From positions 405,168-469,167 of the forward strand of contig CP129474.1 of the NCBI GenBank assembly GCA_030583765.1: DNA of 64,000 nucleotides, given 5' to 3'. The position numbers and the translations under genes are program-made. The stretch is from Minisyncoccota bacterium. GTDB lineage: Bacteria > Patescibacteriota > Minisyncoccia > 2-02-FULL-40-12 > GWA2-44-9. Shown here piece after piece: positions 20,921 through 46,897 of this stretch. Positions within the stretch are counted from its first letter, which is position 1. Each line of letters opens with the position of its first letter. The notes beneath the pieces were generated by a model. The model had not been told where the DNA came from, did not search any database, and worked only from the letters and a program-made list of their open reading frames with translations.

Positions 20921-21295
20921 CTAACGTACTATAACGGAGCACCGGGCGGTTTTTTCTCCGCTGGTTACAATGATTTCTTGTCGTCCTTCTGTTTCTGCAG
21001 AGAAAGCGATGATAGCAATTGATTCCGCGGTGGTGATGTAGGCAATGTTTGCGCCGGGGACATCCCAACGATAGGGTGGGCGGCCTCCTTCTGCAAAAAC
21101 AATGAGGTCTTGCTCAGGCGCGACGTGCGTGCTTTTGGGGGAGCAGACAAGAGGCTGCTGATCCGCGCCCGAAGAAGAGATTTCGGGAGTAAAGAGCGTT
21201 TGTTGAAACAACGCAAGCATACCAATGGTACCAGCAAACGTAGTGGCAATTACTGAAACCCATGTTCGTGATACGGAAAAAGAGTAGCGACCCAT
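20921..21295 (-). CDS. Small membrane-anchored protein with one copy of the Cys-bracketed GG-x-Y-x-W Ig-like repeat
   Basis: An N-terminal TM segment followed by LVCSPKST...FAEGGRPPYRWD...CSVIV. It is the last gene of the sortase/surface-protein operon. Confidence 0.55.
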   Translation of the reverse strand: MGRYSFSVSRTWVSVIATTFAGTIGMLALFQQTLFTPEISSSGADQQPLVCSPKSTHVAPEQDLIVFAEGGRPPYRWDVPGANIAYITTAESIAIIAFSAETEGRQEIIVTSGEKTARCSVIVR

Positions 21296-21299
21296 AGTG

Positions 21300-21932
21300 T
21301 TAGGGGAGCGGCGCTTGAATGACTCCTATGCCACACTCCGCGAATTGTCCAGAAGCGGAAACGCGGACGCTGTGATGTGTTACGCTCTCTTGTGGCGTTG
21401 TGGTAAAAGTATTCCCAGTTCCGCTGGCAGGATTGGTGCTTTGAGAACTCCATGCATAAGCTCCACTCCCGCCGGTAGCAAAAATGCGCGCACTTTGACC
21501 TTGGAAGAGAGTTTGGTAGAGCGGCACACATCGCAGCGGCGGCGTCGCTGCTTCTTGTGGGAAGGCTGCTTCGGTGACATATACTTCACAAAATGCGATG
21601 TCGTCTCCGCTTCGTACCACGACTGGTTTCCGGTGCGGGTCACCATCAATGGATCCTTGCATATATCGTGTTGTAAATGTGGCGTCAGATCCAGAGTTCT
21701 GTTCCGCATCTTCAGCAACCCAGGTATACACTCCACTACCACCGCTTGCCGAGAGGGTAACTGTGTCTCCAGCAATAACTGACTGGTATAGCGGGGAACA
21801 GCGCAGACTACCCGAAGAGCCGCTACTTTCGGACGGGACGGATTCCACAAGTGTGCGCGCAACCCACACCCCTCCTGCAGAGAGCAAGAGCAGTGCGACA
21901 ACGAGAACGTTTTTTTGGGTGAAGGATATCAT
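21300..21932 (-). CDS. Secreted/anchored protein with two copies of the Cys-bracketed Ig-like repeat
   Basis: A signal anchor MISFTQKNVLVVALLLLSAGG, then LRCSPLYQ...SASGGSGVYTWV...CEVYV and LRCVPLYQ...ATGGSGAYAWS...CGIGV. It overlaps the upstream gene by 4 bp. Confidence 0.6.
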   Translation of the reverse strand: MISFTQKNVLVVALLLLSAGGVWVARTLVESVPSESSGSSGSLRCSPLYQSVIAGDTVTLSASGGSGVYTWVAEDAEQNSGSDATFTTRYMQGSIDGDPHRKPVVVRSGDDIAFCEVYVTEAAFPQEAATPPLRCVPLYQTLFQGQSARIFATGGSGAYAWSSQSTNPASGTGNTFTTTPQESVTHHSVRVSASGQFAECGIGVIQAPLP

Positions 21933-24574
21933 TGCTTGAAGTTCTCACGCGCCCTCTCACGAACCAGTTCCTGGGCCTCTTTCGTGCGGAAGCGATTCGT
22001 GTGTGCATATGCGGCATATGCGGCACCTGCGAAAGAGCCGAGCGCAAGTGCTAGGAACAGCGTTTCTGCCGGGCCTGTTTGGACTTGGGCGACGATGGCA
22101 ATGGCGCTAGGGAGGAAGATTGGGAGCTCTGCTACGATGAGTGGAATGTTGTCTGCGCGAGCTTGTGATCGATTGATAATTGTGCGTCCCAGTGTTCCGA
22201 GACTTGCAGGATCGCGCATGAGCGCAGAAAAGCGCACTACACTTTCCTGGTTTGCCTGGAGCGTGCCTAGTGAGATTCCGGCTTCAATATTTGCATCAGG
22301 ACGGGAAACCCCATTAATACCAACAGAGCCAAACACGAAACTCATTTCACTTGGCAAGGTGTCTTGCACTATGACATTTGTGGCCGCTTGAGCACCTGCG
22401 CGCACGCGGAGCGTGAATTCAATTGTATCTCTTGCGCGTGCCTGTACTGGCGTTGTGGAAACTAGGTCTCCTTGAGTTATATTACGCCCCTCTTTTATCA
22501 ACTGCATTGAGACTGGAGAGCCTCCAACCCCTGGTGTGCCCGCCGTAGTGATTTGGACGAAAGCCTGATCACTCACGTTGAGGGCGTTAGTGGATCGAGC
22601 AAAGGCGGTGTTGATATGAGTTGATGTTCCCGCTGGGAATGAGCCGGCCCCAGCTACGCGTGCCTGGAAGCGGATAGTAGTACTCTGCCCAGGGACCATG
22701 TCTCCTATCACAATGTCGCCGTCTCCTGCGGGGGCTCCGTCGCGGGTCGTTGTCCCCGCCATACGAATGATAGTGGCCGGTTGCTCATCGGAGAATACGA
22801 CACTGCGCGCCGTATCATTCCCAACAGATCTGATCCGAATCGTATAAAACACGAGGTCTCCTGGTGCGGCGACAATGCTCTCACTGTCTGTGGCGCCAAC
22901 AATATCGCGCCGTACCAATTTCTCTATCTCAAGACGAACCGTTGGACCAGTACCTCCACCTCCGCCACCTCCTCCGCCCGATGGAGGGGGGCTCGTTGGC
23001 GTTGCCGTAGGTGTTGGACTTGCGGGCGGCACCGTAGGTGTCGGAGTGGGGGATGCGGGTGGATCAGTGGGTGTTGGTGTCGGAGTTACCGGTGGTGTTG
23101 CCGTAGGTGTTGGACTTGCGGGCGGGTCAGTAGGGGTTGGTGTTGGGGTTGGGGAGGAGAGAGGCGCAATCGCAACAATACAAGTGACGGTTGTTGCTCC
23201 ATCTGAGAGTACGACATCCTGACTTGAACTGGCAAAAGACGATGAAAAGGCAACAGAAAAGACGGGCCCAGTGCCTGTTGCGGGTTGGCCATTTACTGCA
23301 CTCCATGTATATATGCCGCTTCCGCCCGAGGCCACTACATGGGCTTCTTGGTTTGTATCAACGAGTTGCGAGAGCGGCTCACAAGACAAGGGGATCGCCG
23401 TAGGTGTCGGAGTGGGGGATGCGGGTGGATCAGTGGGTGTTGGTGTCGGAGTTACCGGTGGTGTTGGCGTAGGAGTGGGACTTGCGGGCGGGTCAGTAGG
23501 GGTTGGCGTTGGGGTTGGGGAGGAGAGAGTGACGGGGCATACTGCAGAGCGGCCTGTACGGCTCTCTACGACGACCTCTCGTTCTGCCGGGTCTGCGTCC
23601 GCGAAGGTGACTGTAAATGTATCTCCTTCGCCATCTTGCGGGTCAGCATCGTCGTCAAATGCTTGCCAGAGGAAAGGAGGAATTCCAGAACCAGAAAGAC
23701 TAAATGTTATCGGGACTCCGGGGAAGAACGGGCCAACAGGAGCAACGCAGGCAAAGTCTTCAAATGCGAGGACGACCTGACATGTGGCGGACTGGCCATC
23801 GCTTGCAACGGTTACATCAAAGATTGCTCCGCCGGCAACATTAGGATACTGCACACCAACAAGCGCGCCGCTTGTGCTGCTTAGACTACCTCCCGGAGCT
23901 GTCCACGTATATGTCCCACTCCCGCCGATTGCGCCAATAAATGCCTGATTATTTCCATTTCCTGGAGTAACAACTTGTAATGCGGGAACGCAGGTAAGTG
24001 TGGTAGGAGTCGGTGTGGGGGTAGGAGTCGGTGTGGGGGTAGGAGTCGGTGTGGGGGTAGGCTGTGCATATAGCTCATCACAGTAAAGTTGAGTGTTGTC
24101 TACATCCCCAACATCGCGGAACTGAACCCCCAAGAATTGACTCGAATGGAAGGATGGTGGCTCTGGTGCTGGGCCAAAAATAAGATCAACTTGTGAGTAG
24201 CATGCATCAATTGAAACAGAGAGATCAACCCAAGATCCTGGCGCAACAGACCGCGAATCTTCGTCATAAATAGTCTGCTGTGCGGTGTAGTGTGGGGGCG
24301 TTCCGCCACGATCTGACCAAATGCTATAGGAAACTAAAGTGATAACGCAATCAACATCGTTATCATTGCGAACTCGCGAAGACGCTGAGCCACCTGAGAT
24401 ATTTACTTTGCTACCCTGTGAGAAAATAAGGTTTTTATCACATACAGCAGCGTCCGATGATTGGAAGCGATCCAGTGTTGCTGGTATTTGAGTGGCGGCA
24501 ATAACGGCAAGCGCGGTGATGCTTGCAATACCGATGTACCCCAAAGCCTTTTTTATAGATGGGCTTAAAGTCAT
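21929..24574 (-). CDS. Large (881 aa) cell-surface protein
   Basis: An N-terminal signal anchor, three Ig-like repeats, (PT)n and Gly9 linkers, two DUF11-like domains, and the C-terminal sorting signal (VQTGPAE + TM + basic tail), all read from the translation. The gene contains a duplicated segment of about 130 bp. Confidence 0.75.
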   Translation of the reverse strand: MTLSPSIKKALGYIGIASITALAVIAATQIPATLDRFQSSDAAVCDKNLIFSQGSKVNISGGSASSRVRNDNDVDCVITLVSYSIWSDRGGTPPHYTAQQTIYDEDSRSVAPGSWVDLSVSIDACYSQVDLIFGPAPEPPSFHSSQFLGVQFRDVGDVDNTQLYCDELYAQPTPTPTPTPTPTPTPTPTPTTLTCVPALQVVTPGNGNNQAFIGAIGGSGTYTWTAPGGSLSSTSGALVGVQYPNVAGGAIFDVTVASDGQSATCQVVLAFEDFACVAPVGPFFPGVPITFSLSGSGIPPFLWQAFDDDADPQDGEGDTFTVTFADADPAEREVVVESRTGRSAVCPVTLSSPTPTPTPTDPPASPTPTPTPPVTPTPTPTDPPASPTPTPTAIPLSCEPLSQLVDTNQEAHVVASGGSGIYTWSAVNGQPATGTGPVFSVAFSSSFASSSQDVVLSDGATTVTCIVAIAPLSSPTPTPTPTDPPASPTPTATPPVTPTPTPTDPPASPTPTPTVPPASPTPTATPTSPPPSGGGGGGGGGTGPTVRLEIEKLVRRDIVGATDSESIVAAPGDLVFYTIRIRSVGNDTARSVVFSDEQPATIIRMAGTTTRDGAPAGDGDIVIGDMVPGQSTTIRFQARVAGAGSFPAGTSTHINTAFARSTNALNVSDQAFVQITTAGTPGVGGSPVSMQLIKEGRNITQGDLVSTTPVQARARDTIEFTLRVRAGAQAATNVIVQDTLPSEMSFVFGSVGINGVSRPDANIEAGISLGTLQANQESVVRFSALMRDPASLGTLGRTIINRSQARADNIPLIVAELPIFLPSAIAIVAQVQTGPAETLFLALALGSFAGAAYAAYAHTNRFRTKEAQELVRERARENFKQ

Positions 24575-25014
24575 GGTGTTAGCGTACAGTCATCTGTTCT
24601 CGTGGGTATCGTAGCTTGCGCCGGATCTCCACTGATAAGCAGCAGCCCATATCCAGGGAATGAAGTATTGATGGATGTGCTAAAAGTGCTACCCGAACCA
24701 GACGCTGGGGCTCCCCCGAAAGCGCGCCATGTAAATGTTCCATTTCCGCCACTTGCTGTTGCTGAAACGGAAATAGTGCCCCCCGCTTCTTCTAAAGAGG
24801 TAACCGTGCATAGGACGGGTTCTATGAGGTCAGAGAGTGAAATGTCGGCGGGGATTGAAGCGCTTCCGCGTTCGACATTGACGGCAACATCAGGAGCTCC
24901 AGAAAGCGCGAGCGCGAGGACAATGCCTATTGCAAGGAAAATCAAGAGTCCTGCGACCTTGCGTTCGTGGATTTGGACCCACTGCACTATTTGTTCTCGG
25001 GAGGGAGTGCGCAT
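24571..25014 (-). CDS. Small TM-anchored protein with one Ig-like repeat (GGNGTFTWRA)
   Basis: An N-terminal TM segment LLIFLAIGIVLALAL. It overlaps its neighbours by 4 bp and 28 bp, as expected for translational coupling within the operon. Confidence 0.55.
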   Translation of the reverse strand: MRTPSREQIVQWVQIHERKVAGLLIFLAIGIVLALALSGAPDVAVNVERGSASIPADISLSDLIEPVLCTVTSLEEAGGTISVSATASGGNGTFTWRAFGGAPASGSGSTFSTSINTSFPGYGLLLISGDPAQATIPTRTDDCTLTP

Positions 25015-28000
25015 GTTATTGACCCATCGCTTTGTATATTACATTCTATCACATTTGCTGCCTGAGATCCTGAGAAATCAACATCTCCTGGCGGCGTAAT
25101 CGCAATAGACGCAATGCCAAGGAGTACGAGCGTTAGGGGTGCGGTTGCAAAATTGAACGTTGTTGATTGTGCGGCTAGCTCGCGAGCTTCTCCAGTCTTC
25201 CATCTGTGCAATCGTGTAATACCAAGCCATGTGCCAGCGACAATAAATGCTCCTCCAAGGGCAATGAGAAGTGACTCGGCGATGCCCGTTGACACGGCGC
25301 TTGCGTCCCGCAGGCCCCCTCCCATGAGAATAGTGGCGTGTTCCGCCTGAACTCTGGAAAGGTTGGTTGCTTCTACGGCTGCGCGAGTGACAAGTGCCTG
25401 TGTCCCAATGCCTGCTCGCAGCTCCGTTTTAGTAGAGAATCGGACACTCACCGTGTCGCCAGCTCGCAACGATCCTAGTGCAATATTGCGACGTATGTCC
25501 GCGTTAGCGTCCTGTACACCGTTGATAGAGAGGGTGCCAGGTACAAACGTGAGGTATTCAGGAAGAGTGATTGTGGCAGTTGCGTTGTTTGTGGTATGTA
25601 TTGCGCGCACGAGAAGGGCGAGCTCGAGTGTTTCGCCTTGCATGGCGCGGGTTTCTTGCGAGAGTTGCGTGGCTCCTCGCGAAAGATTACGCCCACTGAG
25701 CGAGAGAGTGATGGCGGGTATCCCTGGGGAGATGTTTTCTCCGCCTTGATTATTCGAATTACCTATCTGTGGAGAGGCCCGGAAGATGGAAAGTGTTCCT
25801 GCGTGGGCGATGCGGCCATGTGTGTCGCTGGTGAGGGATGCGGTAATGGGAATGACCGTTGTCCCGATTGCAAATGCGGACTCATTTGCTACGGAGAGGG
25901 TCCCAGAAATTTCTATCGTGCGCGTTCCAGAGATGCTCCCAATACGAACGGTGCGCCCGTCGACCGCCCCTGAAGATGTGCGCAATGAATTTGGTACGAG
26001 GGATACTGTGCTTGGTAGCGCAAGTGTTAGAGATGCATTTGTAAGCGCACTAACAGACTGTGTTTCCACAAGGATGCGCATAGCAACGTTTTGTCCAGGA
26101 GTGCGGGAAAGGGTGTTCGTGAATGCTCCCGTAGCTTCTGGTTCGCGGAATCCAATAGCGAGAGAGATGCTGTCTGCTTGGGTGGTTGGGTTTTGTGATG
26201 TAGCAGTGGCTTGCCGCACAGTGACGCCACACACTGCCGACCGCGTTCCATCAGAGACGGTGACGGAACGGGATCCAGGGGCACTAAAGCGTGTGGTAAA
26301 CGATGCTCCCGTACCCTGTGAAGGGGTACCCGCCCCAGAGCTCCATGTATATGTTCCGCTGCCGCCACGAGCCCGAATGAGAGCATCATCTCCTACTGAG
26401 ACAGACTGAGAAAGCGGCTCACAGGCAAGGGTCTGATTGTTTTCTGATGCGGGAGTTTCTTGTACAACAATACTGCATGCCTGCGATACTCCACCGCTAA
26501 CAACGGTGACTATATGTGTTCCTGGAGAGTCTGGCGTTGTGCGGAAGACAGATGCGCCGCCAGTGCGAGGGATGCCGTTGGATGTTGACCATGCGTATGC
26601 CCCCGTGCCTCCGGTGGCGAATATATTTGCTGCTTGTCCGCGAGTAATAATTTGATTAAGTGGTGTACACGCGAGGGGTGCGCTCGGAATTTGTGGGGGA
26701 ATGTTGACAAGTGTCGTTGGGCTTGGTGTTGGCGAAGGCGTCGCTTGCGACGACGGGCTTGGCGTTGTGGTCACGGGCGCTGTCGGAGTCGGGGTTATTT
26801 GTGAGGTGGGTGTTGGTGTGAATGCAGGCGTGCTACTTGGCTGGATGCTTATGATTGGGGTCGGTGACGAAGAGACTGGCACCGGTTCTGGGGCAACAAG
26901 GACGAGGCATGAAGTTGTCTCCGCGCCACTGCGCACAGTCACCGTGTGTTGATCAAGGCATGTCGGACCTAGGAGCTGTGCATTAAAAATCGGAATTGTG
27001 TCTGACGAAATAGGACAAAGGAGCCGAGGAGTATTCAGGGTGTAGCGCGTACTAAAGCTTGTCCCGGTGCCGGCGGACGTGGTCGCTCGTGGTGCGCTCC
27101 ATTGATACGTTCCCGTGCCTCCAGTTGCGGTGAAAATTACCTCTTGTCCCGGTGCGACAACTCGTGATGAGGGTACGCAGGCAAGCGTTTGTGGGCCAGG
27201 TGTTGCACTGGGAGCCGGTGTTGTAGTGGGCGTGCGCGTTGGGGTTGGTGTGGCGCCAGAGCAGGGGATGCCAAGTATCTTATATCCGATGGCGCGATGC
27301 ACTGCGCGAAGCGTGTCTCCATGTTCGCGCGTACCAGATGGACGACCATATGAGAACATGGTGATCGCTTTTACGCGGCGGTCGTTATAAGCCGCATAGT
27401 ATGCCGGAGCCTGAAGGTCTTTGAGTGTAGTGAGATTTGTCCACGAACCATTCCTCGCGTACGCCATCATGACGATAACTATGTCTTTCGATGCTGGAAC
27501 GCGTTGTTTCGCGCGAGAAAGGAATGAGGAGAGGGCTCCCACGTTTGTGCTCGAGGTGTTGCTACCTGGCGGATCGATATAGGCCTCAATGCCGACCCAA
27601 TCGAGGCCGTCAGAGAATAGCATGTCTTGTTGCATGAGCTGATCATCTGTATAGACGACCCCCACTGGTCTCTGAGCAAGGTTTCGCGCTCGCAACTTTG
27701 CCTCAATGTCTTTTATGCGCTGCTCTGTTTGAGCTCGTGTCCAGTTTGGTTCGTCTCCGAGCTCAATGCGGGTCACCTTGCTCCAGTAGGGGCGCATCAT
27801 GTCGAGCACACGGTTGATCGTTGTATCTGTGACCTGGTCGCGCTCCATGCCGAGGGCAAGGTAAATATTCTTATTGTCCTCAAATGCTCGGCGCACTGCC
27901 GCATCCATTTTTGGGATCCAGACATCATCGCTTTCTTCAGAGTGGGATTCATATCCACGTCGTACCCATGCGTGATATGTGTTGGTGAAGCTTGAGACTT

Positions 28001-29024
28001 CGTTATATACATCCCCATAGCGTCCATCGGTAAAGTAGTATGCAAAATCAATGGGATGGTTGGGGTTGGGAAGCGCGGCACACGTACTTGGGAACGGAGT
28101 CGCTATAGGCGCTGGGGTTGGTGTTGCCTGATTGCAGGATATGCCATAGTTAAACACTACATTAAAACCCTCTCCAGTACCTTCGCCATCGATAAGCCAT
28201 TCGGCGCCTTGCACAATGCGGCCACAGTTATATGCGCCAGTGTCGTAGCTGATGCGCCATTGCTGATTTTTTCCTTGGCCAAAGTGCGTTTCGCCACGAT
28301 CAAATCCTTGCGCCCACGTTGTGCCAGGCTCGCTGTTATTTCTACTCCACCCAGCAGTCGGTACGTGATCGGCATAGAATTTGAGGTTTACTTCTTTTCC
28401 AGTAGTGTTGTCCAACAAGCCTCCTGCAAAAATTTTGGAACACGAAGAGAGGGGATCGGTATTTTCCTGATCGCCAAATTTAGAAAAACTACACTCATCT
28501 GTTGAGCGCGAAAGATCCCACGAAAACGATCCTGGGGCCTGTGATGGAGGGTTGCATTCACCGTTCGAGCAACCATACTCACATGCGGGCTCTAGATTTT
28601 CTCCATTGCAATTACTGTAGTGCTGGAAAACATATTCTTTCCTCCCTACGCCATTGCATGAGCGATAGGTTTCTTCACACGCTTCTCCACTTCCGGATAA
28701 TCCAGGATTCTCTACGTTTTCCGCGTTGGTAATGATGCTCTGGCTGCCTGTGGAATTGTATGGATCAGTAGGGCACGAACCAACCTCGGCGTAGGTGCCG
28801 TCCGGACATTCTTCAAAGCCACTTTGCTCGAATGGTCCAGGCGCTGCACGGAACTCAGACAAACGGATAGACAGAAGTGTCCCACCGTAAGCGACGGCAA
28901 CAATAGCGAGCGTAGCGATACTAATAGTGAACCACCTTACTCTATGCAGTGCGTGCACAAAGAAGCCAATGCGCGAGGCTATGGCGCCAAAGAGTTCAAC
29001 GAGAGAATCTCGCCCTGATTGCAT
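24987..29024 (-). CDS. Giant (1345 aa) cell-surface protein
   Basis: It begins with an N-terminal TM segment, a Cys-rich segment and a TIM-barrel-like, hydrolase-like region. Next come (PT)n linkers, three Ig-like repeats, DUF11-like domains and the sorting signal VSTGIAE + TM + RLHRWK. All were read from the translation. Confidence 0.75.
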   Translation of the reverse strand: MQSGRDSLVELFGAIASRIGFFVHALHRVRWFTISIATLAIVAVAYGGTLLSIRLSEFRAAPGPFEQSGFEECPDGTYAEVGSCPTDPYNSTGSQSIITNAENVENPGLSGSGEACEETYRSCNGVGRKEYVFQHYSNCNGENLEPACEYGCSNGECNPPSQAPGSFSWDLSRSTDECSFSKFGDQENTDPLSSCSKIFAGGLLDNTTGKEVNLKFYADHVPTAGWSRNNSEPGTTWAQGFDRGETHFGQGKNQQWRISYDTGAYNCGRIVQGAEWLIDGEGTGEGFNVVFNYGISCNQATPTPAPIATPFPSTCAALPNPNHPIDFAYYFTDGRYGDVYNEVSSFTNTYHAWVRRGYESHSEESDDVWIPKMDAAVRRAFEDNKNIYLALGMERDQVTDTTINRVLDMMRPYWSKVTRIELGDEPNWTRAQTEQRIKDIEAKLRARNLAQRPVGVVYTDDQLMQQDMLFSDGLDWVGIEAYIDPPGSNTSSTNVGALSSFLSRAKQRVPASKDIVIVMMAYARNGSWTNLTTLKDLQAPAYYAAYNDRRVKAITMFSYGRPSGTREHGDTLRAVHRAIGYKILGIPCSGATPTPTRTPTTTPAPSATPGPQTLACVPSSRVVAPGQEVIFTATGGTGTYQWSAPRATTSAGTGTSFSTRYTLNTPRLLCPISSDTIPIFNAQLLGPTCLDQHTVTVRSGAETTSCLVLVAPEPVPVSSSPTPIISIQPSSTPAFTPTPTSQITPTPTAPVTTTPSPSSQATPSPTPSPTTLVNIPPQIPSAPLACTPLNQIITRGQAANIFATGGTGAYAWSTSNGIPRTGGASVFRTTPDSPGTHIVTVVSGGVSQACSIVVQETPASENNQTLACEPLSQSVSVGDDALIRARGGSGTYTWSSGAGTPSQGTGASFTTRFSAPGSRSVTVSDGTRSAVCGVTVRQATATSQNPTTQADSISLAIGFREPEATGAFTNTLSRTPGQNVAMRILVETQSVSALTNASLTLALPSTVSLVPNSLRTSSGAVDGRTVRIGSISGTRTIEISGTLSVANESAFAIGTTVIPITASLTSDTHGRIAHAGTLSIFRASPQIGNSNNQGGENISPGIPAITLSLSGRNLSRGATQLSQETRAMQGETLELALLVRAIHTTNNATATITLPEYLTFVPGTLSINGVQDANADIRRNIALGSLRAGDTVSVRFSTKTELRAGIGTQALVTRAAVEATNLSRVQAEHATILMGGGLRDASAVSTGIAESLLIALGGAFIVAGTWLGITRLHRWKTGEARELAAQSTTFNFATAPLTLVLLGIASIAITPPGDVDFSGSQAANVIECNIQSDGSITCALPPENK

Positions 29025-29077
29025 TACTCACAGTATACCTCTGTGCATGCGAGATTGCATGCATTTTTGTCCACATC

Positions 29078-29707
29078 TTACTCAAAGACGCGCTCTGCAT
29101 AGACCGCGATGCGACGATAGTTTGTGCCAACCGGCCAGCAACTGAGGAGCACAAGGCTGGGGGTGTTTGTCTGCTCGAGCTCGGTGAGGCGCGCATCATC
29201 GGCAAACGGGTTAAAGACAATAGATTTTTTCATTTCAAATACAAACGTTCTCCCGTCTTCATATCGCACATAGAAGCGCTCGCCTGGGTGGAGCTTGCCG
29301 AGCAAGGCAAACACGGAGCCGTATGCTCCACGATACCACGGATACGCTGAGCTGTGTCCTAAAACGATTGCGATGCCGTCTTGTCCCGGTTTCACGCTAT
29401 TACCATAGTGGACAACGCCGTCTTCGAGGCGCTCATAGATATCATCGTTCTGTGGCGGAACGTTAAAGACTATTGGAGCATCAACGCCGAGCCGATCAAT
29501 AACGAGGCGGGCGTTATGAGGGAGCGGACGCTGGGCGATGTCGTCGGCGAGAGGAAAGAGCGTCGGGATTCCAGCGAGAGAGTCGTCTCGGATAATAGTG
29601 CCCGGAGCAACGAAGTACCGAATGTTTGCGCCCACAAAGCGAATATTGAGGAGGCTAAAAATAATAATGAATGAAAAAGTAAAAATGCCCGCAAAGCGAA
29701 TTTTCAT
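29078..29707 (-). CDS. Sortase (transpeptidase)
   Basis: An N-terminal TM segment, then LVIDRLGVDAPIV, a catalytic His in IVLGHSS, Cys in LVLLSCWP, and Arg in YRRIAVYA. This is the sortase TLxTC/His/Arg triad pattern. Confidence 0.75.
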   Translation of the reverse strand: MKIRFAGIFTFSFIIIFSLLNIRFVGANIRYFVAPGTIIRDDSLAGIPTLFPLADDIAQRPLPHNARLVIDRLGVDAPIVFNVPPQNDDIYERLEDGVVHYGNSVKPGQDGIAIVLGHSSAYPWYRGAYGSVFALLGKLHPGERFYVRYEDGRTFVFEMKKSIVFNPFADDARLTELEQTNTPSLVLLSCWPVGTNYRRIAVYAERVFE

Positions 29708-29788
29708 GGCACGCGCATGGTTGTGGAGATGTGGGGGCATATAACACACAGCGCCCTCGCGGGCGCTGTGTAGTGTGCATCACAAACG

Positions 29789-32566
29789 TTATGCCGTTAG
29801 TGACCGCCCGCGCTGGCGAAGTAGCTGAGCTCCAGTATAGCGCATGTGGCCGTAGGTGACGAGCATACTGCCAACAAGTGCGAGCACGGCGGTGTCTGCT
29901 GGTCCTGTGGGAACCTTTCCAACAGTACCAATCGACGTACGGGAGATGGGCAGCGTCGCGGAAACCTGGGACGCATTATCTGCGCGCGCATACCCAACAT
30001 TAATGACGTTATATGTGCCAGAAGGGAATGTGGTCCCTGTGTTTGTGCGCGTCGAGAAGCGAACGCTCGCCTCTTGATTTGGTGCGAGTGAGCCGATTTG
30101 GATACCTCCGCTGGTGACGCCATCGCCAACGGCAATACTGTTTACACCGGTTGAGCCACCGAGATACGTGAATCCTTCGGGAAGCGTATCCCATACCACG
30201 ACGTTTGAAAGCGTCGTGCTGGTTGTATTGCGAACGCGGAGTGTAAATTCAATTGTTTCATTTGATCCAACGACGAGAGATGAGGACTCCGTAACCTGTC
30301 CACGCGAAATATTGCGTCCAGTTTTCTGAATAGACATCTGTCCGTTGCCCGGGTTGCCATAGCCTCGTGAAACATTCACGAGAGCGGTGTCGGAGACGCT
30401 CCCCGTATTGTTCGCAGTTGCAGTTGCAGTGTTGACGAGCGTGGTTGTGCCGCTTGAGAATGCAGAGTCGTTGTCGACAGTTGCGCGGAATCGCACTGTG
30501 ATCGTGCGCCCCGAGCTATAGGATCCGAGGTTGAGACCGGAAGACGTGAGTGTGTCGCCAGTGTAGGAGCCATCGATAGTGGTGCTTCCCGAAACGTAGG
30601 TTGCGCGATGGGGCAACGCATCGGTGAGACGCAAGTTTTCGACATATGTGCCGCCATGAATATTAATGCGAATGACGTATTCCAGTGAGTCGCCCGGGTC
30701 GGCGGCAACGACGTCTTGCTCATTTGTGCCATCCGAGATGTTGCGTACCTGTTTCGTAAGGGAGATATTTGCGGATGAGTTATTGTTGCCAATGCGAACG
30801 GAGCACGTTGCGGTCTGGTTTCCGCTCGAGAGATACACCATATTCGTGGTGTCGTATGAGCTATACCACCGTGTCGAGAAGCTCGAGCCCGTGCCATAAT
30901 TCGGATCGCCACCCGAGGCGTTCCATGAGTAGGAGCCAGTGCCACCGTTTGCGTAAAAGTACACCGTTTGGCCGCTCTGAGCGTTCTGATATGACGGTGA
31001 GCAGGAGAGAGATTGGTTCTGCGTCGGCTGTACGTATACGGAGCACGTTGCGGTCTGGTTTCCGCTTACCACCTGCACATTGCGTGTGCCAGAATATGAG
31101 AACGAAGAGGTGAAGTTTGAGCCGCTGCCAGTTGTTGGGTTGCCATCATACGCAAACCATGAATATGTTCCGTTGCCACCCTGTGCGAAGAAGATGGCGT
31201 TTTGGTTGATAGTAACTGTTTGGTTCGCTGGCGAGCAGGTAAGAGTCTGGTTCTGCGTCGGCTGTACGTTCACTGAGCATGCTGTGCTTTGGGTGCCGCT
31301 CACTACGTACACATTGCGTGTGCCTGGAGTACTAAACGTTGTGGCGAAGGACGCGTTTGAGCCAAAACTTGGGTTGCCGTCGTATGCGTTCCAGATATAT
31401 GAGCCAGTGCCACCGCTTGCCACAAATTGTGCCAACTGTCCTACAAACACTGTTTGGTTTGCTGGCGAGCAGGTAAGAGTTTGATTTTGTGCGGGCTGCA
31501 CTGTTACAACGCAGGTAGCGCTTTGAGTGCCACTGACAAGATACACATTGCGTGTGCCTGGAGTACTAAACGTTGTGGCGAAGTTTGAGCCGGTTCCGTA
31601 TGTTGGGGTGCCATCATACGTGTTCCAGACATAAGTGCTCGCTCCGCCTGAGGCAGAGAATTGCGCGAGCTGCCCCACGACAACCGTTTGTGTGGTGGGT
31701 GAGCATGAGAGAACTGTTGGCGTTGGAGTCGGGGTTGGTGTGGGAGTGACGGTTGCGCCACAAGCTTGAGCGGTTACGGCAACGGCGACCGTGTTTGAAG
31801 AAACGAGCGGGTGAGCTTTTACACGGTAGGTGTATGTGTTGCCGAGAGAAACTGCGGTGTCGGTGTAGATGTTGCTGTTGTATGCCGGTCCTGGCGTGAT
31901 GAAAAATCCCTCGCCGCCGTTGATGGTTTTAATGACTCCGTTCGAATTGCGATTCGCAACAAGATTCCACGTAAGGTTAATGCGTGGATTTGTGCCACCA
32001 ACGCATTGCGCTGAAAGCGTAGGGGAGGTAGGGAGAACTGTTGGCGTTGGGGTCGGGGTTGGTGTGGGGGTTGGTGTTGGAGTGGGAGTTGCGATGGCGC
32101 CACAGTAATTTGGGTGTTCAAATTTATCTATCGATGCTACGAGATAGTGCCCACTTGTTGGTCCACCGAAAAATGGAGGCGTGAGCGGCTCGCCCTGGAA
32201 CAAATCTAGCTGGTATTTGCAGGTTGTCGGGACGCTTACCTGCAGACGGGTTGAGCCAATGGTTTCTCCCGGTGCAAGAGTAAACGTCTTTGCATCATGA
32301 AGCGTTTGGTTAGCGAGTTCGCCATTTGGATTAACGCGATATGACGCAATGCCAATGGTGTATGTGCATGATGTAGAACGGTTCTCGATCCACGCCATTG
32401 CACGTGGGTCCTGGGCGCTACCAGTTGCGGTGAAATGTCCAAAAAGATGTTGAGACGCATCGTCACAGACATCGGCAGCAGTGACAGGTGTGCCAGAAAG
32501 GGCCCCAGAAAAGAGGAAAATGGCAAAAAAGACACCGATTCCTGCCCATGGAGTGAGTTTTTGCAT
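29789..32566 (-). CDS. Large (925 aa) cell-surface protein
   Basis: The translation reads signal peptide, N-terminal Cys-containing domain, (PT)n, an FN3-like domain, four tandem Ig-like repeats, and two DUF11-like domains. It ends with the sorting signal VPTGPAD + TM + basic tail. The Ig-like repeats are encoded by tandem DNA repeats of about 230 bp. Confidence 0.8.
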   Translation of the reverse strand: MQKLTPWAGIGVFFAIFLFSGALSGTPVTAADVCDDASQHLFGHFTATGSAQDPRAMAWIENRSTSCTYTIGIASYRVNPNGELANQTLHDAKTFTLAPGETIGSTRLQVSVPTTCKYQLDLFQGEPLTPPFFGGPTSGHYLVASIDKFEHPNYCGAIATPTPTPTPTPTPTPTPTVLPTSPTLSAQCVGGTNPRINLTWNLVANRNSNGVIKTINGGEGFFITPGPAYNSNIYTDTAVSLGNTYTYRVKAHPLVSSNTVAVAVTAQACGATVTPTPTPTPTPTVLSCSPTTQTVVVGQLAQFSASGGASTYVWNTYDGTPTYGTGSNFATTFSTPGTRNVYLVSGTQSATCVVTVQPAQNQTLTCSPANQTVFVGQLAQFVASGGTGSYIWNAYDGNPSFGSNASFATTFSTPGTRNVYVVSGTQSTACSVNVQPTQNQTLTCSPANQTVTINQNAIFFAQGGNGTYSWFAYDGNPTTGSGSNFTSSFSYSGTRNVQVVSGNQTATCSVYVQPTQNQSLSCSPSYQNAQSGQTVYFYANGGTGSYSWNASGGDPNYGTGSSFSTRWYSSYDTTNMVYLSSGNQTATCSVRIGNNNSSANISLTKQVRNISDGTNEQDVVAADPGDSLEYVIRINIHGGTYVENLRLTDALPHRATYVSGSTTIDGSYTGDTLTSSGLNLGSYSSGRTITVRFRATVDNDSAFSSGTTTLVNTATATANNTGSVSDTALVNVSRGYGNPGNGQMSIQKTGRNISRGQVTESSSLVVGSNETIEFTLRVRNTTSTTLSNVVVWDTLPEGFTYLGGSTGVNSIAVGDGVTSGGIQIGSLAPNQEASVRFSTRTNTGTTFPSGTYNVINVGYARADNASQVSATLPISRTSIGTVGKVPTGPADTAVLALVGSMLVTYGHMRYTGAQLLRQRGRSLTA

Positions 32567-32574
32567 ATGCTTGT

Positions 32575-32603
32575 ATTCTACAATAAAATGTTTTTAAAGT
32601 CAA
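32575..32603 (-). promoter_or_regulatory. sigma70-like promoter for the surface-protein/sortase operon (minus strand: TTGACT, 17-nt spacer, TAGAAT); the predicted TSS is essentially at the ATG, so the mRNA would be leaderless
   Basis: The reverse complement of 32598-32603 is TTGACT and of 32575-32580 is TAGAAT. The ATG lies at 32564-32566. Confidence 0.5.
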
Positions 32604-32798: not shown

Positions 32799-32885
32799 TG
32801 GTGCCCGGGGTGGGAATCGAACCCACACGGCCTTTCGGCCACATCATTTTAAGTGACGTGCGTCTGCCAGTTTCGCCACCCGGAC
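32799..32885 (-). tRNA. tRNA-Leu (anticodon UAA), type II with a long variable arm, CCA encoded
   Basis: Acceptor GTCCGGG/CCCGGGC, anticodon loop CTTAAAA, variable arm TGGCCGAAAGGCCG, and T-arm GTGGGTTCGATTCCCAC. Confidence 0.85.
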
Positions 32886-33356
32886 TTTGCTTTTGTTTTT
32901 TCCTCGATGCGTTGCCTGAAGGCTATGACAATTAGGGCAAAGAATGCGTAAGTTTTCAATCCTATTATCGCTGTGGTCGCCGTTTATATGATCAAGCTCG
33001 ACTGGTATTCTGCCATCTTTTGCAGTTTTTGCCCAGCTGCACTCCTCGCATTGTGGCTGTTTTAATCCTGCCAAGAAAAGACGCTTTTTTAACTTAAAAC
33101 TTTGGAAAGCGCTACCACGCACAAGGATGTCTTCTAGTGTTCTACGTGGTTTCCCGATGCCTCGGAGACCCTTATTCCACGCAGATCCAGTGAAATGATC
33201 TATGGGAACTTGTAGCGCTGTTAGCCTCGCCTTAATGCTTTGGTAGTTCCCGCCGGCGGGGATGAGGTTGAGGCGACTAATAACTTCACGGATGCTTTTG
33301 CTCCGTTGTGTGGCTGTGCGAAGTTTAGCGTCGCTCCACGTGCGTCCTCTTGGCAT
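32844..33356 (-). CDS. Free-standing HNH endonuclease (homing-endonuclease-like), inserted between tRNA genes
   Basis: ELDHINGDHSDNRIENLRILCPNCHS carries the HNH His-Asn-His and Cys4 motif. The last roughly 40 nt of the ORF overlap the 5' half of tRNA-Leu. GC is lower than the flanks. Confidence 0.8.
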   Translation of the reverse strand: MPRGRTWSDAKLRTATQRSKSIREVISRLNLIPAGGNYQSIKARLTALQVPIDHFTGSAWNKGLRGIGKPRRTLEDILVRGSAFQSFKLKKRLFLAGLKQPQCEECSWAKTAKDGRIPVELDHINGDHSDNRIENLRILCPNCHSLQATHRGKNKSKVRVAKLADARHLK

Positions 33357-37463: not shown

Positions 37464-38195
37464 TTATATCTCCCGCGCGATGACGAGCGCGGAGACAGAG
37501 GAAGCGCCTGCGGCGCGTAAAGCTGTGGCGCACGCATCAAGTGTGGCGCCAGTCGTGCATACGTCATCAATGAGCAGAATACTTTTTCCTTTTACGAGCG
37601 AAGGGTGTGGGCATGAGAATAAATTCTGCACTGATAAGAATCGCTCGGTACGCGAATGGTGCACTTGGGTTTCAGTGTGGTGGGTGCGCATAAGTGTGGC
37701 CGGCGCGTAGATCTGCTGTGTGGCGTGCGCAATAATCTCTGCAATGCGCCCTGCTTGGTTGAACCCGCGCCAGTTTAGGCGCCGCGTGTGGAGAGGCACG
37801 GGAACAATGAGGGGGTTTTCGGAAAAGATATTGCGCGTACGCGACATGCGCTTGAGTGCGCGCAACACTACGCGGCCGAGCGGGCGGTGCAAGTCTTCAA
37901 TGCATCCATACTTATATGCGTGAAGTGCGGTGCGCACGGCAGGGTGTTGAAAGTGGGTGGCGGCGTAGAGCGCACTAATATTCCATTCTGGAGCGCACGA
38001 GGAACACGCTACGCCTTGTGGTGTGGCGCGAGCGCAGCCAATACATTGTCCGGATGCGCTCACAGGAATGCGGCCGGCACACGCGCGACAGAGGTAGCGA
38101 TCGCGGGGATCGTAGGGGAGCGCGTCACACGCGACGCATCGCGGCGGGAAAATGGCATCGGCAAGGGTGGTGCACAGCTGGGCGATGGAGGGCAT
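37464..38195 (-). CDS. comFC: ComF-family protein (ComFC; phosphoribosyltransferase-like competence protein with N-terminal double zinc ribbon)
   Basis: An N-terminal zinc-ribbon region with CxxC pairs (CVAC...CRAC...CIGC...CSSC), and a C-terminal PRTase motif ILLIDDVCTTGATL. Confidence 0.8.
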   Translation of the reverse strand: MPSIAQLCTTLADAIFPPRCVACDALPYDPRDRYLCRACAGRIPVSASGQCIGCARATPQGVACSSCAPEWNISALYAATHFQHPAVRTALHAYKYGCIEDLHRPLGRVVLRALKRMSRTRNIFSENPLIVPVPLHTRRLNWRGFNQAGRIAEIIAHATQQIYAPATLMRTHHTETQVHHSRTERFLSVQNLFSCPHPSLVKGKSILLIDDVCTTGATLDACATALRAAGASSVSALVIAREI

Positions 38196-38218
38196 GGTAT
38201 ACTACAGGTGACGTTACC

Positions 38219-39268
38219 ATGTTCAAACTTTTTCAGTCAAAAGGAAAACTCGGTGTCGATATCGGGACACATGCTATTAAAATTGTCGAGCTTGGGAAGG
38301 ATAACGGGCGCTTTACTCTTTTAAACTATGGCATCTTCGCATTTCCCGAAACGGGCACAGGCACAACGCCCGAAGAGCGCGATGCATTCCTTACGCAGGG
38401 GATTAAACAACTCATCGAGCAGTGCAAGTTCTCTAGCGTAGATGCCGTTGCCGCAATTCCACCGTTTTCACTGTTCACGACGGTGATTGAAATGCCGTAT
38501 CTTTCGGAAGACGATCTTGCAAAGGCGATTCCCTTTGAGGCGCGTAAGTATGTTCCTATTCCATTAAGCGAGGTGGTGTTGGATTGGTCTATTATTGGCG
38601 TGAATGAAGCGGCGCCAGGATCTACTACGCCACCAACCGTCGAGATTTTTATTGCTGCCGTACCTCGCGAAGAAACAGCTCGCTATCAGGCGATCATGCA
38701 AGCGGCTGGTTTAAATCTTGTTGCACTCGAATTGCAGAACACGGGGCTTATCCGTGGACTACTCGGTAACGATTTAAGTCCCACGGCGGTCGTTGATATC
38801 GGAGGGCGGGGCACAACTATTATTGTCGTGAATAAGGGATATGAACGAGTGAATCGTTCCTATGAGGTGGGGAGTTTTGAAATTACGAAATCCATTGCTC
38901 GCGCGTTGAGCATCAGTGAAGGGAAGGCAGAGGGATTGAAGATGCAGTATGGTTTGCGCGAGGGAGATGACAATGTTATTCGCGATTCAGTAATTTCGCT
39001 TGTCGACCTCATTGTATTTGAAGCAAGCAAAACAATCGCCGGATATGAGGAGTCTAAAAATACAAAAATCGGCCGCGTTGTCGTTACCGGAGGGCTCGCA
39101 AATATGCCAGGTTTTGTTGCATATTTTACAAAGCGTCTCGCGCGCGATGTTATTGTGGGGAATGCGTTCTCTCGGGTTGTCTACCCACAGCAGTTGGCGC
39201 CGGTGATTCAAGAGCTTTCAAACACGCTTGCGGTAGCCACAGGTTTAGCCATGCGCGAAGAAAGCTAA
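38219..39268 (+). CDS. pilM: Type IV pilus assembly protein PilM (actin-like ATPase)
   Basis: MFKLFQSKGKLGVDIGTHAIKIVEL, the typical PilM N-terminus. The start is taken at ATG 38219, 23 bp from the divergent comFC. Confidence 0.8.
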   Translation: MFKLFQSKGKLGVDIGTHAIKIVELGKDNGRFTLLNYGIFAFPETGTGTTPEERDAFLTQGIKQLIEQCKFSSVDAVAAIPPFSLFTTVIEMPYLSEDDLAKAIPFEARKYVPIPLSEVVLDWSIIGVNEAAPGSTTPPTVEIFIAAVPREETARYQAIMQAAGLNLVALELQNTGLIRGLLGNDLSPTAVVDIGGRGTTIIVVNKGYERVNRSYEVGSFEITKSIARALSISEGKAEGLKMQYGLREGDDNVIRDSVISLVDLIVFEASKTIAGYEESKNTKIGRVVVTGGLANMPGFVAYFTKRLARDVIVGNAFSRVVYPQQLAPVIQELSNTLAVATGLAMREES

Positions 39269-39309
39269 TGGTATACTAGCGACAGGGAGCATTCCGCTCT
39301 CTCTTTCCT

Positions 39310-39939
39310 ATGCCAGGCCGCGGCGGCATTCAACTTCTACCTACACTTCCCGGCACCAAGAAAATCGACGTAGCAACGCCGGGGGAATACACCGTACTCA
39401 TTATTGGAGTACTTATTTTCGCTGTGGGCATTGGGTTTTCGCTGTTCGCGTGGCTACAGGTGAAGGCAAAGGAAGAAAAAATTGCAGCATTGAACGTAGA
39501 AATCGAGCAGATTGAAAAATCACGTATTGTAAAAGATGAGCAAACAATTATTGCGTTTCGCAAGCAGCTTGCTCCCGTGGGAAGCATTCTCGACAATCAC
39601 ATATTTGTATCTCAAGGCTTAACGGCTCTTGAGAGCCTTATCCACTCTAAAGTGCAAGTAAAAAACTTATCAATACAAGCACAGCAAGGCTCTGTGTCGG
39701 TGAGGGGATTTGCTCCAGATTACACAACGATCGCGCAACAGCTTGCTACGTTCTTGCGTAAAAATAAGCATGTTACCTCTGCGGTGCTTGGCGGCATGCA
39801 AACAAACAATGCGGGCGGACTTGATTTCGACGTATCGCTTTCAGTGAATAGCGATGCATTTTTCAAGAAGCAACCATCGCCAACGCCTCGGCCGAGCCCT
39901 TCTGGTAAGCCATCTCCCGCAGTTTCTCCTCAGCTATGA
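39310..39939 (+). CDS. pilN: Type IV pilus assembly protein PilN
   Basis: A single N-terminal TM segment, a coiled-coil and a periplasmic domain. It sits in the pilMNO order. Confidence 0.65.
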   Translation: MPGRGGIQLLPTLPGTKKIDVATPGEYTVLIIGVLIFAVGIGFSLFAWLQVKAKEEKIAALNVEIEQIEKSRIVKDEQTIIAFRKQLAPVGSILDNHIFVSQGLTALESLIHSKVQVKNLSIQAQQGSVSVRGFAPDYTTIAQQLATFLRKNKHVTSAVLGGMQTNNAGGLDFDVSLSVNSDAFFKKQPSPTPRPSPSGKPSPAVSPQL

Positions 39940-40523
39940 ATCTCCCCGCTGCGCCAAAAGACATGATCGGTGCGACGCTTGCGGCCATTGGCGTCGCGTT
40001 GGGTTGGGGCTTGGGATACGCACACATGAGCACCTTGGGCGCCCATGATGATGCTATAGCTGAGCGCGAGAGCTTTGTAGAGAAACGCCTTCAGCAAAAA
40101 GCGAATTTTGAGGATCTGTTTGCGGCATACACCTCAGCGAGTGATATTAAGCGCGCAACGCAGGAGATTTTGCCCACCGAAGAAAATATTCCCGAACTTA
40201 TTTCTGCGTTGCAGCAAATGGCTCGCGACTCTGGCGTCGGGGTAAAATCAATTTCAGTGACAGGCGCAGGAGGGGGGAAGGGCACACAGGCATCAGTGAC
40301 GATCCAGCAAGTGGGTATTTCGCTGAGTGTGCAGGGTTCGTATAGTAGTATCAAAACTCTCCTCTCGTTTATAGAGAAGAATCGTCGCATCATTGATGTC
40401 TCAACAATAGATTTTGCTCCAAGTGCAATTGATACGACGATCATTGATACGACGATCTCCGCGAGTGCTTACGTTGCACCCGAACAAGCGCAGCGTGATG
40501 AAGAAACGCCGACGAAGAAGTAA
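39936..40523 (+). CDS. pilO: Type IV pilus assembly protein PilO
   Basis: An N-terminal TM segment plus a coiled-coil, overlapping the pilN stop by 4 bp. Confidence 0.6.
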   Translation: MNLPAAPKDMIGATLAAIGVALGWGLGYAHMSTLGAHDDAIAERESFVEKRLQQKANFEDLFAAYTSASDIKRATQEILPTEENIPELISALQQMARDSGVGVKSISVTGAGGGKGTQASVTIQQVGISLSVQGSYSSIKTLLSFIEKNRRIIDVSTIDFAPSAIDTTIIDTTISASAYVAPEQAQRDEETPTKK

Positions 40524-40538
40524 ATTCTTTTCATACCA

Positions 40539-40823
40539 ATGACACAGCAATCTTCCGGATCACAAATATACATTATTCTCGGCGCGATTGTGCTCTTGGG
40601 GGCCGTTGCGGGATACATTGTTTCGGGCATGGTGAGTCAGGGTGTAGATATCCCTCCATACACTGTCCAAAAACCTGATACACTCAAAGAGCTTGATGGC
40701 CCCGGATTTCAATTTGGGTTGTTGCGCGGCAACGCAACATATACTTCGTTGCAGTCGTTCGGTGAGTCGACAGTAACAATCCCAGCAGGAGGTCGTCTCA
40801 ACATGTTCGCGCCCGTGCAGTAA
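40539..40823 (+). CDS. Small membrane protein in the pilus locus (PilP-like position)
   Basis: 94 aa with an N-terminal TM segment IYIILGAIVLLGAVAGYIV. The call rests on its position only. Confidence 0.4.
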   Translation: MTQQSSGSQIYIILGAIVLLGAVAGYIVSGMVSQGVDIPPYTVQKPDTLKELDGPGFQFGLLRGNATYTSLQSFGESTVTIPAGGRLNMFAPVQ

Positions 40824-40829
40824 TCATGT

Positions 40830-43657: not shown

Positions 43658-43659
43658 TT

Positions 43660-44868: not shown

Positions 44869-44918
44869 TGTTGTTGATAATATCCCTTGTGCCTCTGTGC
44901 GGTAAGCGCGATAATACA

Positions 44919-45443: not shown

Positions 45444-45517
45444 TGTAGTTATAAACAATAATCGTGGCGAACCGGGCGGTCTCTTGAGAACACACGGCGC
45501 GCCACACCATTTCTAGT

Positions 45518-46018: not shown

Positions 46019-46035
46019 TTGTACGCACAAAAACA

Positions 46036-46067
46036 AAACGGCCCATATCGGGGCCGTTTTGTTTTTG
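46036..46067 (+). terminator. Rho-independent terminator after the pilin genes (CGGCCC-atatc-GGGCCG + TTTTGTTTTT)
   Basis: Read directly from the sequence. Confidence 0.55.
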
Positions 46068-46080
46068 GTATGATGACTCT

Positions 46081-46836: not shown

Positions 46837-46897
46837 TAAGGCTGCAACTGCAGAGCTTGTAGCGCGAACGCGCGCCGATGAAGTGCGTCCCCCCAGC

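Follow-up and report, generated by a model that had tools for sequence, protein, structure and literature searches.

A conserved putative [VI]xTG sorting domain beside an unclassified sortase family in Patescibacteria

Which signal does a sortase of the Candidate Phyla Radiation (CPR, or Patescibacteria) recognize when the surface proteins encoded around it carry no LPxTG? A sortase is encoded in more than half of CPR genomes (PMC6744442) and its presence in these bacteria has been noted repeatedly (PMC7143001, PMC4736985, PMC5220378), while the CPR literature that we searched does not name the sorting motif that these enzymes read. The question is raised by a gene cluster in a 64-kb stretch of contig CP129474.1 (the whole stretch that was analyzed, hereafter the window) from an uncultivated CPR bacterium of groundwater, of the Paceibacteria/Yanofskybacteria group. 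Between 20.9 and 32.6 kb the window holds seven successive minus-strand genes that encode three large putative sortase substrates (substrates 1-3), one sortase and three small proteins; infB and an HNH endonuclease gene lie upstream of this cluster and recG downstream. A sequence-only reading of this DNA had proposed that the C-termini of the three large proteins form a non-canonical sorting signal. We find that the signal, [VI]-x-T-G followed by a transmembrane (TM) helix and a conserved basic tail, is real and lineage-wide. The best-supported interpretation is classical sortase chemistry with altered specificity, that is, a lineage-specific Patescibacterial sortase system, and we assign a probability of about 70% to the pairing of this enzyme family with [VI]xTG and to cleavage at the motif.

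The three motifs of the window read VQTGPAE, VSTGIAE and VPTGPAD in substrates 1, 2 and 3, respectively (Table 1). Directly after each come 15-20 uncharged residues, and then an Arg/Lys-rich sequence. A search of all six reading frames of the 64 kb for V.TG[PI]A[ED] finds three matches and no more, all of them the substrate motifs; residue shuffling yields a mean of 0.015 matches and a maximum of 1. The peptides quoted in the sequence-only reading are thus present on the minus strand, each ahead of a membrane helix. Its description of all three C-termini as tripartite suits substrates 1 and 3, with 47 and 37 residues between the motif Gly and the C-terminus, and fails for substrate 2, where 98 residues follow: beyond the motif this protein continues with FNF, a second hydrophobic helix and a short Cys-containing tail, and its signal is internal rather than terminal. 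The shared tail [KT]GEA[QR]EL, also reported there, was found in two of the three proteins (substrate 3 has TGAQLL instead) and represents a local form of the broader pattern F-[RK]-[RK]-[RK]-E-[AIV]. At 881-1345 aa the proteins are large, rather than giant as they had been called.

All three substrates have an N-terminal signal peptide or membrane anchor, Pro/Thr-rich linkers and several Cys-bracketed PKD-like domains. Substrate 3 begins with a signal peptide and a Cys-containing N-terminal domain, followed by Pro/Thr linkers and about five PKD-like Cys-bracketed domains. Substrate 1 combines an N-terminal signal or anchor and a Cys-containing N-terminal domain akin to that of substrate 3 with Pro/Thr-rich linkers and PKD-like domains, while substrate 2 has an N-terminal TM segment, large unannotated domains, Pro/Thr/Ser linkers and PKD-like domains. 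Substrates 1 and 3 contain two DUF11 domains each, and substrate 2 shows a sub-threshold match. DUF11, recently renamed CLIPPER, is a CnaA-like, isopeptide-stabilized stalk domain of fibrillar adhesins, both sortase-anchored and other (10.1101/2025.04.25.650565). Public records name the proteins that carry the present sorting domain hypothetical, DUF11 or NBR1-Ig-like. No Pfam or NCBIfam model matches the N-terminal half of substrate 2 (aa ~60-600), which has Cys-rich stretches and a part where conserved acidic and aromatic residues alternate; this part could have an enzymatic or a binding function. In substrate 1, a run of nine Gly residues (aa ~530-540) follows long PT/PTD-rich linkers (PTPTPTPT..., TDPPASPTPTPT repeated), a low-complexity part of the protein that may be O-glycosylated or slippage-prone.

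No LPxTG pentapeptide is found in the window signals, which read QVQTG, AVSTG and KVPTG at the corresponding positions. When six tails were compared with NCBIfam and Pfam at E<=10, no curated sorting-signal model was returned; weak matches to circular bacteriocin, tetraspanin and DUF5305 models were rejected as helix-composition matches. Hydrophobic C-termini are common, and the three substrates share domains, so their tails are not independent observations inside the window: three paralogues might have inherited one tail that resembles a sorting signal by chance or composition. The shuffled expectation given above speaks against such a resemblance, and so does the occurrence of the same domain in 123 non-redundant proteins of very different architecture at the same position relative to the sortase gene, which together leave this explanation very improbable.

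The wider comparison was based on loci around relatives of the sortase, 13 from genomes and 80 from metagenomes, and the ORF counts below refer to 82 non-identical loci. The sortase relatives are labelled Patescibacteria, Yanofskybacteria or Paceibacterota, with the nearest contigs coming from Hainich groundwater assemblies. Altogether 76 same-strand open reading frames (ORFs) in these 82 loci combine [VI]xTG with a helix and basic residues, versus 0 of the 247 opposite-strand ORFs. The corresponding search with LP.T[GAS] returned none of the 462 same-strand ORFs. Upstream sequence of 1.5 kb or more was available for 47 loci, and in 36 of these a signal gene ends within 1.3 kb of the sortase. 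The recurring gene order on one strand is a substrate, sometimes a protein of ~300 aa, the sortase and sometimes further substrates. Such a recurrent pairing of [VI]xTG with a sortase family, in loci that offer no LPxTG alternative, is the pattern to be expected of an enzyme and a substrate with a specificity of their own. The idea of a dedicated pair is supported by dozens of independent loci, with the amendment that the pair belongs to the lineage and is not special to this operon.

To the tails of the sortase loci were added those of 63 of the 150 DUF11 representatives from an exhaustive HMMER search, which resulted in 123 non-redundant tails. The proteins that bear them are 288 to 1439 aa long, come from many samples and have very different N-terminal architectures. 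Aligning these C-termini, as the sequence-only reading had suggested for the sortase-adjacent proteins of the lineage, shows [VI]xTG to be conserved: Val (85%) or Ile (13%), a variable residue (Pro 30%, Ser 21%, Ala 14%, Lys 13%, Gln 10%), Thr (96%) and Gly (100%). The Gly is followed by Pro (41%), Thr (20%) or Ala (15%), any residue, Glu (44%), Asp (28%) or Gly (15%), and Ser (52%) or Thr (30%). The GPA(E/D) extension seen in the window is therefore a local form of the looser [PTAG]-x-[EDG]-[ST], while the statement that it falls outside described motifs agrees with the lack of any curated model that recognizes the signal. The helix has conserved Ala, Leu, Ser and Thr positions. After it come Tyr (82%), two variable residues, Tyr (95%), Thr (77%), [RK], Thr (73%), two variable residues, Phe (69%), [RK]3 and Glu (53%), and the domain closes, after a variable stretch of ~10 residues, with Asp (51%), three variable residues, Phe (50%), Asn (60%) and a terminal Phe (69%). 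A median of 51 residues follows the Gly, and the whole sorting domain measures about 55 residues. A profile built only from the tails of other organisms picks exactly substrates 1-3 out of 278 window ORFs, with E-values of 4e-15, 6.6e-13 and, for substrate 2, 1.1e-3. An alignment of 14 tails found nothing at E<=0.01 in a collection of 5.8 billion proteins, because the domain is too short for a database of that size, and the last 260 aa of substrate 1, used as a word-indexed query, brought up one close relative and no useful names.

The conserved cytoplasmic part, with its Y-x-x-Y-T-[RK]-T, F-[RK]3-E and FNF elements, is unusually long for a segment that is to be discarded. It would suit a permanent anchor that is never cleaved, in which helix and tail hold the protein and perhaps bind a cytoplasmic partner, [VI]xTG is a structural cap and the sortase acts elsewhere; the second helix, or even a PKD-like domain, that follows the sorting domain in substrate 2 and a few relatives fits the same picture. 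However, the two best-conserved positions of the domain are Thr and Gly, exactly the scissile pair of sortase signals, the synteny of signal and sortase is strictly same-strand, and in the 82 loci no alternative substrate of the LPxTG or a similar type was found. The motif also survives when the tail is replaced. In loci L086-L093, sortases of only 35-38% identity that retain the GHSSAYPWY segment adjoin [SY]VKTG proteins with an unrelated cytoplasmic tail, in which the helix is followed by YCRxRExKLLExLN...RFKKVYW (e.g. L090:8575-10686, L091:8670-12341). These distant sortases indicate that the motif tracks the enzyme and not the tail, always beside the same sortase family. On this balance we consider a permanent anchor unlikely.

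Several side observations extend the range of tails. In L086-L093 the sortase gene comes first and the substrate gene after it, in a cluster that is preceded by ribosomal protein and rpoA-like genes. A third tail type on DUF11 proteins reads [AV]VTGG[ND][SD]L, helix, W[KR]xxx[FL]K...WKI[KR], and a further one combines [IV][KR]TGA[SG] with a short tail (P0137, P0147, P0165, P0189, P0198 and P0227 are examples of these types). There seems to be a whole repertoire of VxTG-type C-terminal domains on CPR surface proteins.

The extended form of substrate 2 is kept in L001 (3736-7986) and L015 (8609-12928), and analogous extensions occur in L029 (848-3679)/P0192 and in P0256. In substrate 2 and some relatives the second TM helix after the sorting domain carries an extracellular piece, which in P0256 is a whole PKD-like domain. 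Such extended substrates look as if a substrate had been joined to a small protein similar to those encoded downstream, and after cleavage between Thr and Gly a two-helix membrane protein would remain as a separate product.

The window encodes a single sortase, inside the operon and beside its putative substrates, as the sequence-only reading had stated. The start codon given there, 29707, is less likely than the ATG at 29740: the resulting 220-aa product is identical to database protein P0001 and retains the N-terminal H..R motif that is conserved in the sortase relatives. The enzyme has an N-terminal membrane anchor and matches PF04203 (peptidase C60) with 67.7 bits, against a cut-off of 26.6, over profile positions 1-125 of 125. 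The catalytic residues H132 (LGHSS), C204 (SCWP) and R213 (RRIA) are invariant in 17 relatives and align with those of 2xwg and 2w1j, and the structure predicted by AlphaFold2 (AF2) shows the eight-stranded beta-barrel of the sortase fold. When scored with the NCBIfam class models (NF033745-NF033748, NF058671 and TIGR01076), it remains below every cut-off: 43.3 vs 166 for class F, 33.7 vs 140 for SrtD, 33.2 vs 165 for class D, 29.1 vs 39.35 for TIGR01076, 24.2 vs 160 for class C and 24.0 vs 160 for class E. No class A or B model is listed for it at E<=0.01. SrtB-type enzymes, Spy0129 included, are not its closest relatives in either structure or sequence, and neither the DP[WFY] lid motif nor the C-terminal hydrophobic segment of class C is present, the protein ending six residues after the RRIAV segment. 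Its hallmark is the segment GHSSAYPWY[KR]G at the catalytic His, which is nearly invariant across the 82 loci, is retained down to 35% overall identity and, in an alignment with class C enzymes, holds a six-residue insertion (AYPWY[KR]). Residues 135-144 (the SSAYPWY[KR]G loop) form the least confident part of the AF2 core, and the loop may be a flexible substrate-binding loop or lid. By sequence comparison, the sortase belongs to an unclassified family defined by this loop. An apparent link between FSPF or FNPF in the beta6/beta7 loop and TGT or TGP at the motif was left unused as evidence, because it follows phylogeny.

The best PDB matches of the sortase, by both structure and sequence, are class C enzymes (group B Streptococcus SrtC1, Actinomyces oris SrtC-1 and Corynebacterium diphtheriae SrtA), which are likewise encoded within operons alongside their substrates. 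This nearest fold raises the possibility of a sortase-assembled pilus or fibre, in which the single sortase would polymerize the operon proteins head to tail through a bond between the motif Thr and a Lys of the following subunit, as in Gram-positive pilus islands, rather than simply attach each protein to the wall. The operon layout, with several substrates around one sortase, resembles such islands, CnaA-like CLIPPER domains are a feature that the substrates share with pilins and adhesins, and the known xVPTG motifs are those of pilins (PMC3019223). Nevertheless, unlike class C enzymes, the window sortase lacks the lid motif and the C-terminal membrane helix and has the insertion after the catalytic His. 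A regular-expression search, the only test made, found the YPK pilin motif in none of the three substrates, where 'PK' occurs once, in substrate 2 and in an unrelated context. Lys is scarce in these proteins (8, 19 and 9 residues), which are multidomain chains of 880-1345 aa, unlike compact pilins, and many related loci contain a single substrate gene. Assembly into a pilus therefore appears improbable. A CPR pilus system described in a 2026 preprint, PamA/B, works by donor-strand exchange and is unrelated; sortase is mentioned there in the introduction only.

Val two residues before Thr-Gly has precedents. Spy0129, the class B pilus sortase of Streptococcus pyogenes, cleaves EVPTG between Thr and Gly, with the consensus (E/Q/V)(V/P)PTG (PMC3019223). 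SrtC2 of the same species anchors a QVPTGV protein according to Barnett (2004), as cited in PMC11231552. NVQTG was proposed for CbpA of Clostridium difficile, and SrtB did not cleave NVQTG in vitro (PMC4155245). The CPR signals align with LPxTG on Thr-Gly, which supports the earlier placement of Val at the Pro position; the novelty claimed for this substitution was overstated in view of EVPTG and QVPTGV. The x-V-P-T-G core of the S. pyogenes signals is matched literally by KVPTG of substrate 3 and by QVPTG relatives, and is not found in substrates 1 and 2 (VQTG, VSTG). Whereas Pro always stands between Val and Thr in S. pyogenes, this position is Ser, Ala, Lys or Gln in ~60% of the CPR signals; and in contrast to the compact pilins joined through Lys, the CPR substrates are large, multidomain and without a pilin motif. 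The CPR case is set apart in three ways: Pro is dispensable N-terminal to Thr-Gly, the enzyme is not of class B, and the signal is a long conserved domain with parts on both sides of the membrane. No earlier description appears to exist of the Pro-independent core, of the extended conserved tail or of this enzyme family.

Compared with the classical LPXTG system of class A (Staphylococcus aureus SrtA; TIGR01167/PF00746), the CPR system shares a motif ending in Thr-Gly, a hydrophobic helix and basic residues, an N-terminal secretion signal on the substrates, and a membrane-anchored enzyme of the Cys transpeptidase type with a His-Cys-Arg triad and a beta-barrel fold. In contrast to LPXTG, Val or Ile (98%) replaces Pro, no Leu is conserved, and Pro is found at the x position in only 30% of tails. 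Further differences are the conserved [PTAG]-x-[EDG]-[ST] past the Gly and a cytoplasmic part that spans ~30 residues, has conserved motifs of its own and ends in FNF, versus a few Arg or Lys residues. No anchor model matches the CPR signal, and the CPR enzyme lies far below the class A-F cut-offs. Other CPR proteins of the same DUF11/CLIPPER kind bear [AS]P[KP]TG signals, which differ from [VI]xTG by a Pro at the canonical position and a short basic tail. A sortase near such an APKTG-type protein (locus L096) has a related GHSS-x-Y-x-W loop; it differs in the loop sequence, GHSSDYIWKRD, and in its length of 376 aa with a long N-terminal extension. Of three contigs looked up for a sortase partner of APKTG-type proteins, two had none, and the variant loop was dropped as an argument for specificity, a single case being too little.

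In the reading that we favour, the substrates would be exported by Sec as fibrillar surface proteins in which Pro/Thr-rich linkers join Ig-type domains of the PKD-like and DUF11/CLIPPER kinds. The C-terminal domain would retain them in the membrane, with [VI]-x-T-G outside, one TM helix and the basic tail in the cytoplasm. The membrane-anchored sortase would then recognize [VI]-x-T-G, and Cys204 would attack the Thr-Gly bond. The substrate would be passed to an amine acceptor, most likely on a peptidoglycan precursor or the cell wall, which would fix these adhesin-like proteins covalently on the cell surface and leave the Gly-initiated helix and tail in the membrane. A cell wall is to be expected, since the window encodes LysM-M23 and VanW/PG_binding_4 proteins. 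We hold the identity of the acceptor with less confidence than pairing and cleavage.

A number of points weigh against this reading. Cleavage in CPR organisms is inferred, and the CPR envelope is poorly understood (PMC5220378). A classical charged stop-transfer tail is much shorter and less conserved than the post-helix tail found here, which together with the second helix of substrate 2 would also fit a permanent membrane anchor. Substrate 2 matches the out-of-window profile weakly (E 1.1e-3), and the AF2 model of the sortase is moderately confident, with a mean predicted local distance difference test (pLDDT) score of 73 that falls below 50 in the hallmark loop. Finally, the loci were gathered by sortase similarity, which leaves out signal genes far from sortases and signal-bearing genomes that have no sortase.

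In a more elaborate and rather doubtful version, the ~55-residue domain would be a two-sided sorting signal of a hitherto undescribed kind. Here the outer [VI]xTG would be cleaved while the conserved cytoplasmic half, Y-x-x-Y-T-[RK]-T-x-x-F-[RK]3-E...F-N-F, may be read separately, for example by the sortase N-terminus (H..R....RF) or by another factor, and this reading could gate or localize cleavage. Extended forms would release a second functional membrane protein, and the GHSSAYPWY family would constitute a seventh, Pro-independent sortase class, which might be of use for orthogonal ligation.

Table 1. Features of the surface-protein cluster and its surroundings (window coordinates; all residue numbers refer to the encoded protein)
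Feature	Position	Strand	Details
Substrate 3	29789..32566	-	925 aa; translation; Pfam DUF11 7.9e-15, PKD 4.1e-11; TIGR01451; tail profile match
Substrate 3 sorting domain	29792..29917	-	K-VPTG-PAD, TM helix 29849-29893, basic tail HMRYTGAQLLRQRGRSLTA; short form without terminal FNF
VPTGPAD of substrate 3	29894..29914	-	aa 885-891 of 925
Sortase	29078..29740	-	220 aa from the more likely start, ATG 29740; mechanical ORF reaches GTG 29749
Catalytic His in GHSSAYPWYRG	29327-29359	-	
FNPF in beta6/beta7 loop of sortase	29204-29215	-	
Catalytic Cys in SCWPVGT	29123-29143	-	
Catalytic Arg in RRIAV	29102-29116	-	
Substrate 2	24987..29024	-	1345 aa
Substrate 2, unmatched N-terminal half	25900-28100	-	aa ~60-600
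Substrate 2 sorting domain	24990..25298	-	A-VSTG-IAE, TM helix 25215-25274, RLHRWKTGEARELAAQSTTFNF, second TM helix, Cys-containing tail of ~35 aa
VSTGIAE of substrate 2	25275..25295	-	aa 1244-1250 of 1345
Substrate 2, second helix and extracellular piece	24990-25150	-	
Small operon protein	24571..25014	-	147 aa, N-terminal TM helix and one PKD-like Cys-bracketed domain
Substrate 1	21929..24574	-	881 aa
Substrate 1, nine-Gly run	22950-23000	-	aa ~530-540
Substrate 1 sorting domain	21932..22087	-	Q-VQTG-PAE, TM helix 22004-22063, then HTNRFRTKEAQELVRERARENFKQ
VQTGPAE of substrate 1	22064..22084	-	aa 831-837 of 881
Motif-spanning peptides of the signals			IVAQVQTGPAETL, ASAVSTGIAESL, GKVPTGPADTA
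Small operon protein	21300..21932	-	210 aa, N-terminal TM helix and two PKD-like domains; E 1.6e-48 vs substrate 3
Small operon protein	20921..21295	-	124 aa, N-terminal TM helix and one PKD-like domain
Promoter-like site TTGACT-17-TAGAAT	32575..32603	-	10/12 consensus matches; just upstream of substrate 3 start
Perfect 12-bp GC-rich hairpin, GCGA loop	29745..29772	-	between substrate 3 stop (29789-29791) and sortase ATG 29740
HNH endonuclease	32844-33356	-	170 aa; PF13392/PF01844
Type IV pilus cluster	38018-49812	+	

The PKD-like domains of the three small operon proteins are paralogous to those in the large substrates (phmmer, E down to 1.6e-48), and none of the three has a sorting signal; these proteins could be partners, acceptors or decoys of the substrates. 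The gene for the 147-aa protein overlaps the end of the substrate 2 gene by 28 nt, and from its position the protein may be a part of the sortase system. The promoter-like site listed upstream of substrate 3 is, by its consensus match, a candidate operon promoter; such sites are, in total, no more frequent in the region than in shuffled sequences. The hairpin between the substrate 3 and sortase genes has a predicted stability of -31.4 kcal/mol (z -4.3), equalled by 0 of 200 shuffles, and no U-run follows its stem. It may reduce translation or transcription of the sortase relative to substrate 3.

Roughly half of the related loci (L004:9053-9982, L005:9080-9991, L006:2973-3905, L007:1048-2040 and ~40 others) encode, between substrate and sortase, the ~300-aa membrane protein mentioned above. 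Its N-terminal TM helix is followed by a CAP/SCP domain (PF00188, E 1e-16) and a linker, and two TM helices form its C-terminal part; a CAP protein also adjoins the distant APKTG-type sortase in L096 (3285-4451). This CAP protein may be an accessory factor of CPR sortases. No homologue of it was found in the window, so it is not obligatory for the system here.

Outside the cluster, the HNH endonuclease gene stands alone between infB and the surface-protein operon and may be the remnant of a mobile or homing element. The type IV pilus cluster encodes PilB/PilT/PilC-like ATPases and platform proteins, a prepilin peptidase-like protein and at least five pilins with an N-methylation motif, one of which has 409 aa and a Cys-rich C-terminus. 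The organism therefore has type IV pili besides the surface proteins that the sortase probably handles. Both this cluster and the short IF-2 encoded in the window are typical of CPR.

The sequence-only interpretation was largely right; it understated the spread of the signal and missed the extended tail and the exception formed by substrate 2. The accepted view of how sortases work is left unchanged by these results, which introduce no new principle. The [VI]xTG signal and its sortase represent a concrete, testable pair of peptide and enzyme, and they may add an orthogonal, Pro-independent sortase to the protein-ligation toolbox. For the biology of the lineage, a defined profile of the [VI]xTG domain would make it possible to predict from genomes which surface proteins are covalently displayed by Paceibacteria and related CPR bacteria, and it is with these proteins that the bacteria, as episymbionts, probably attach to their hosts.

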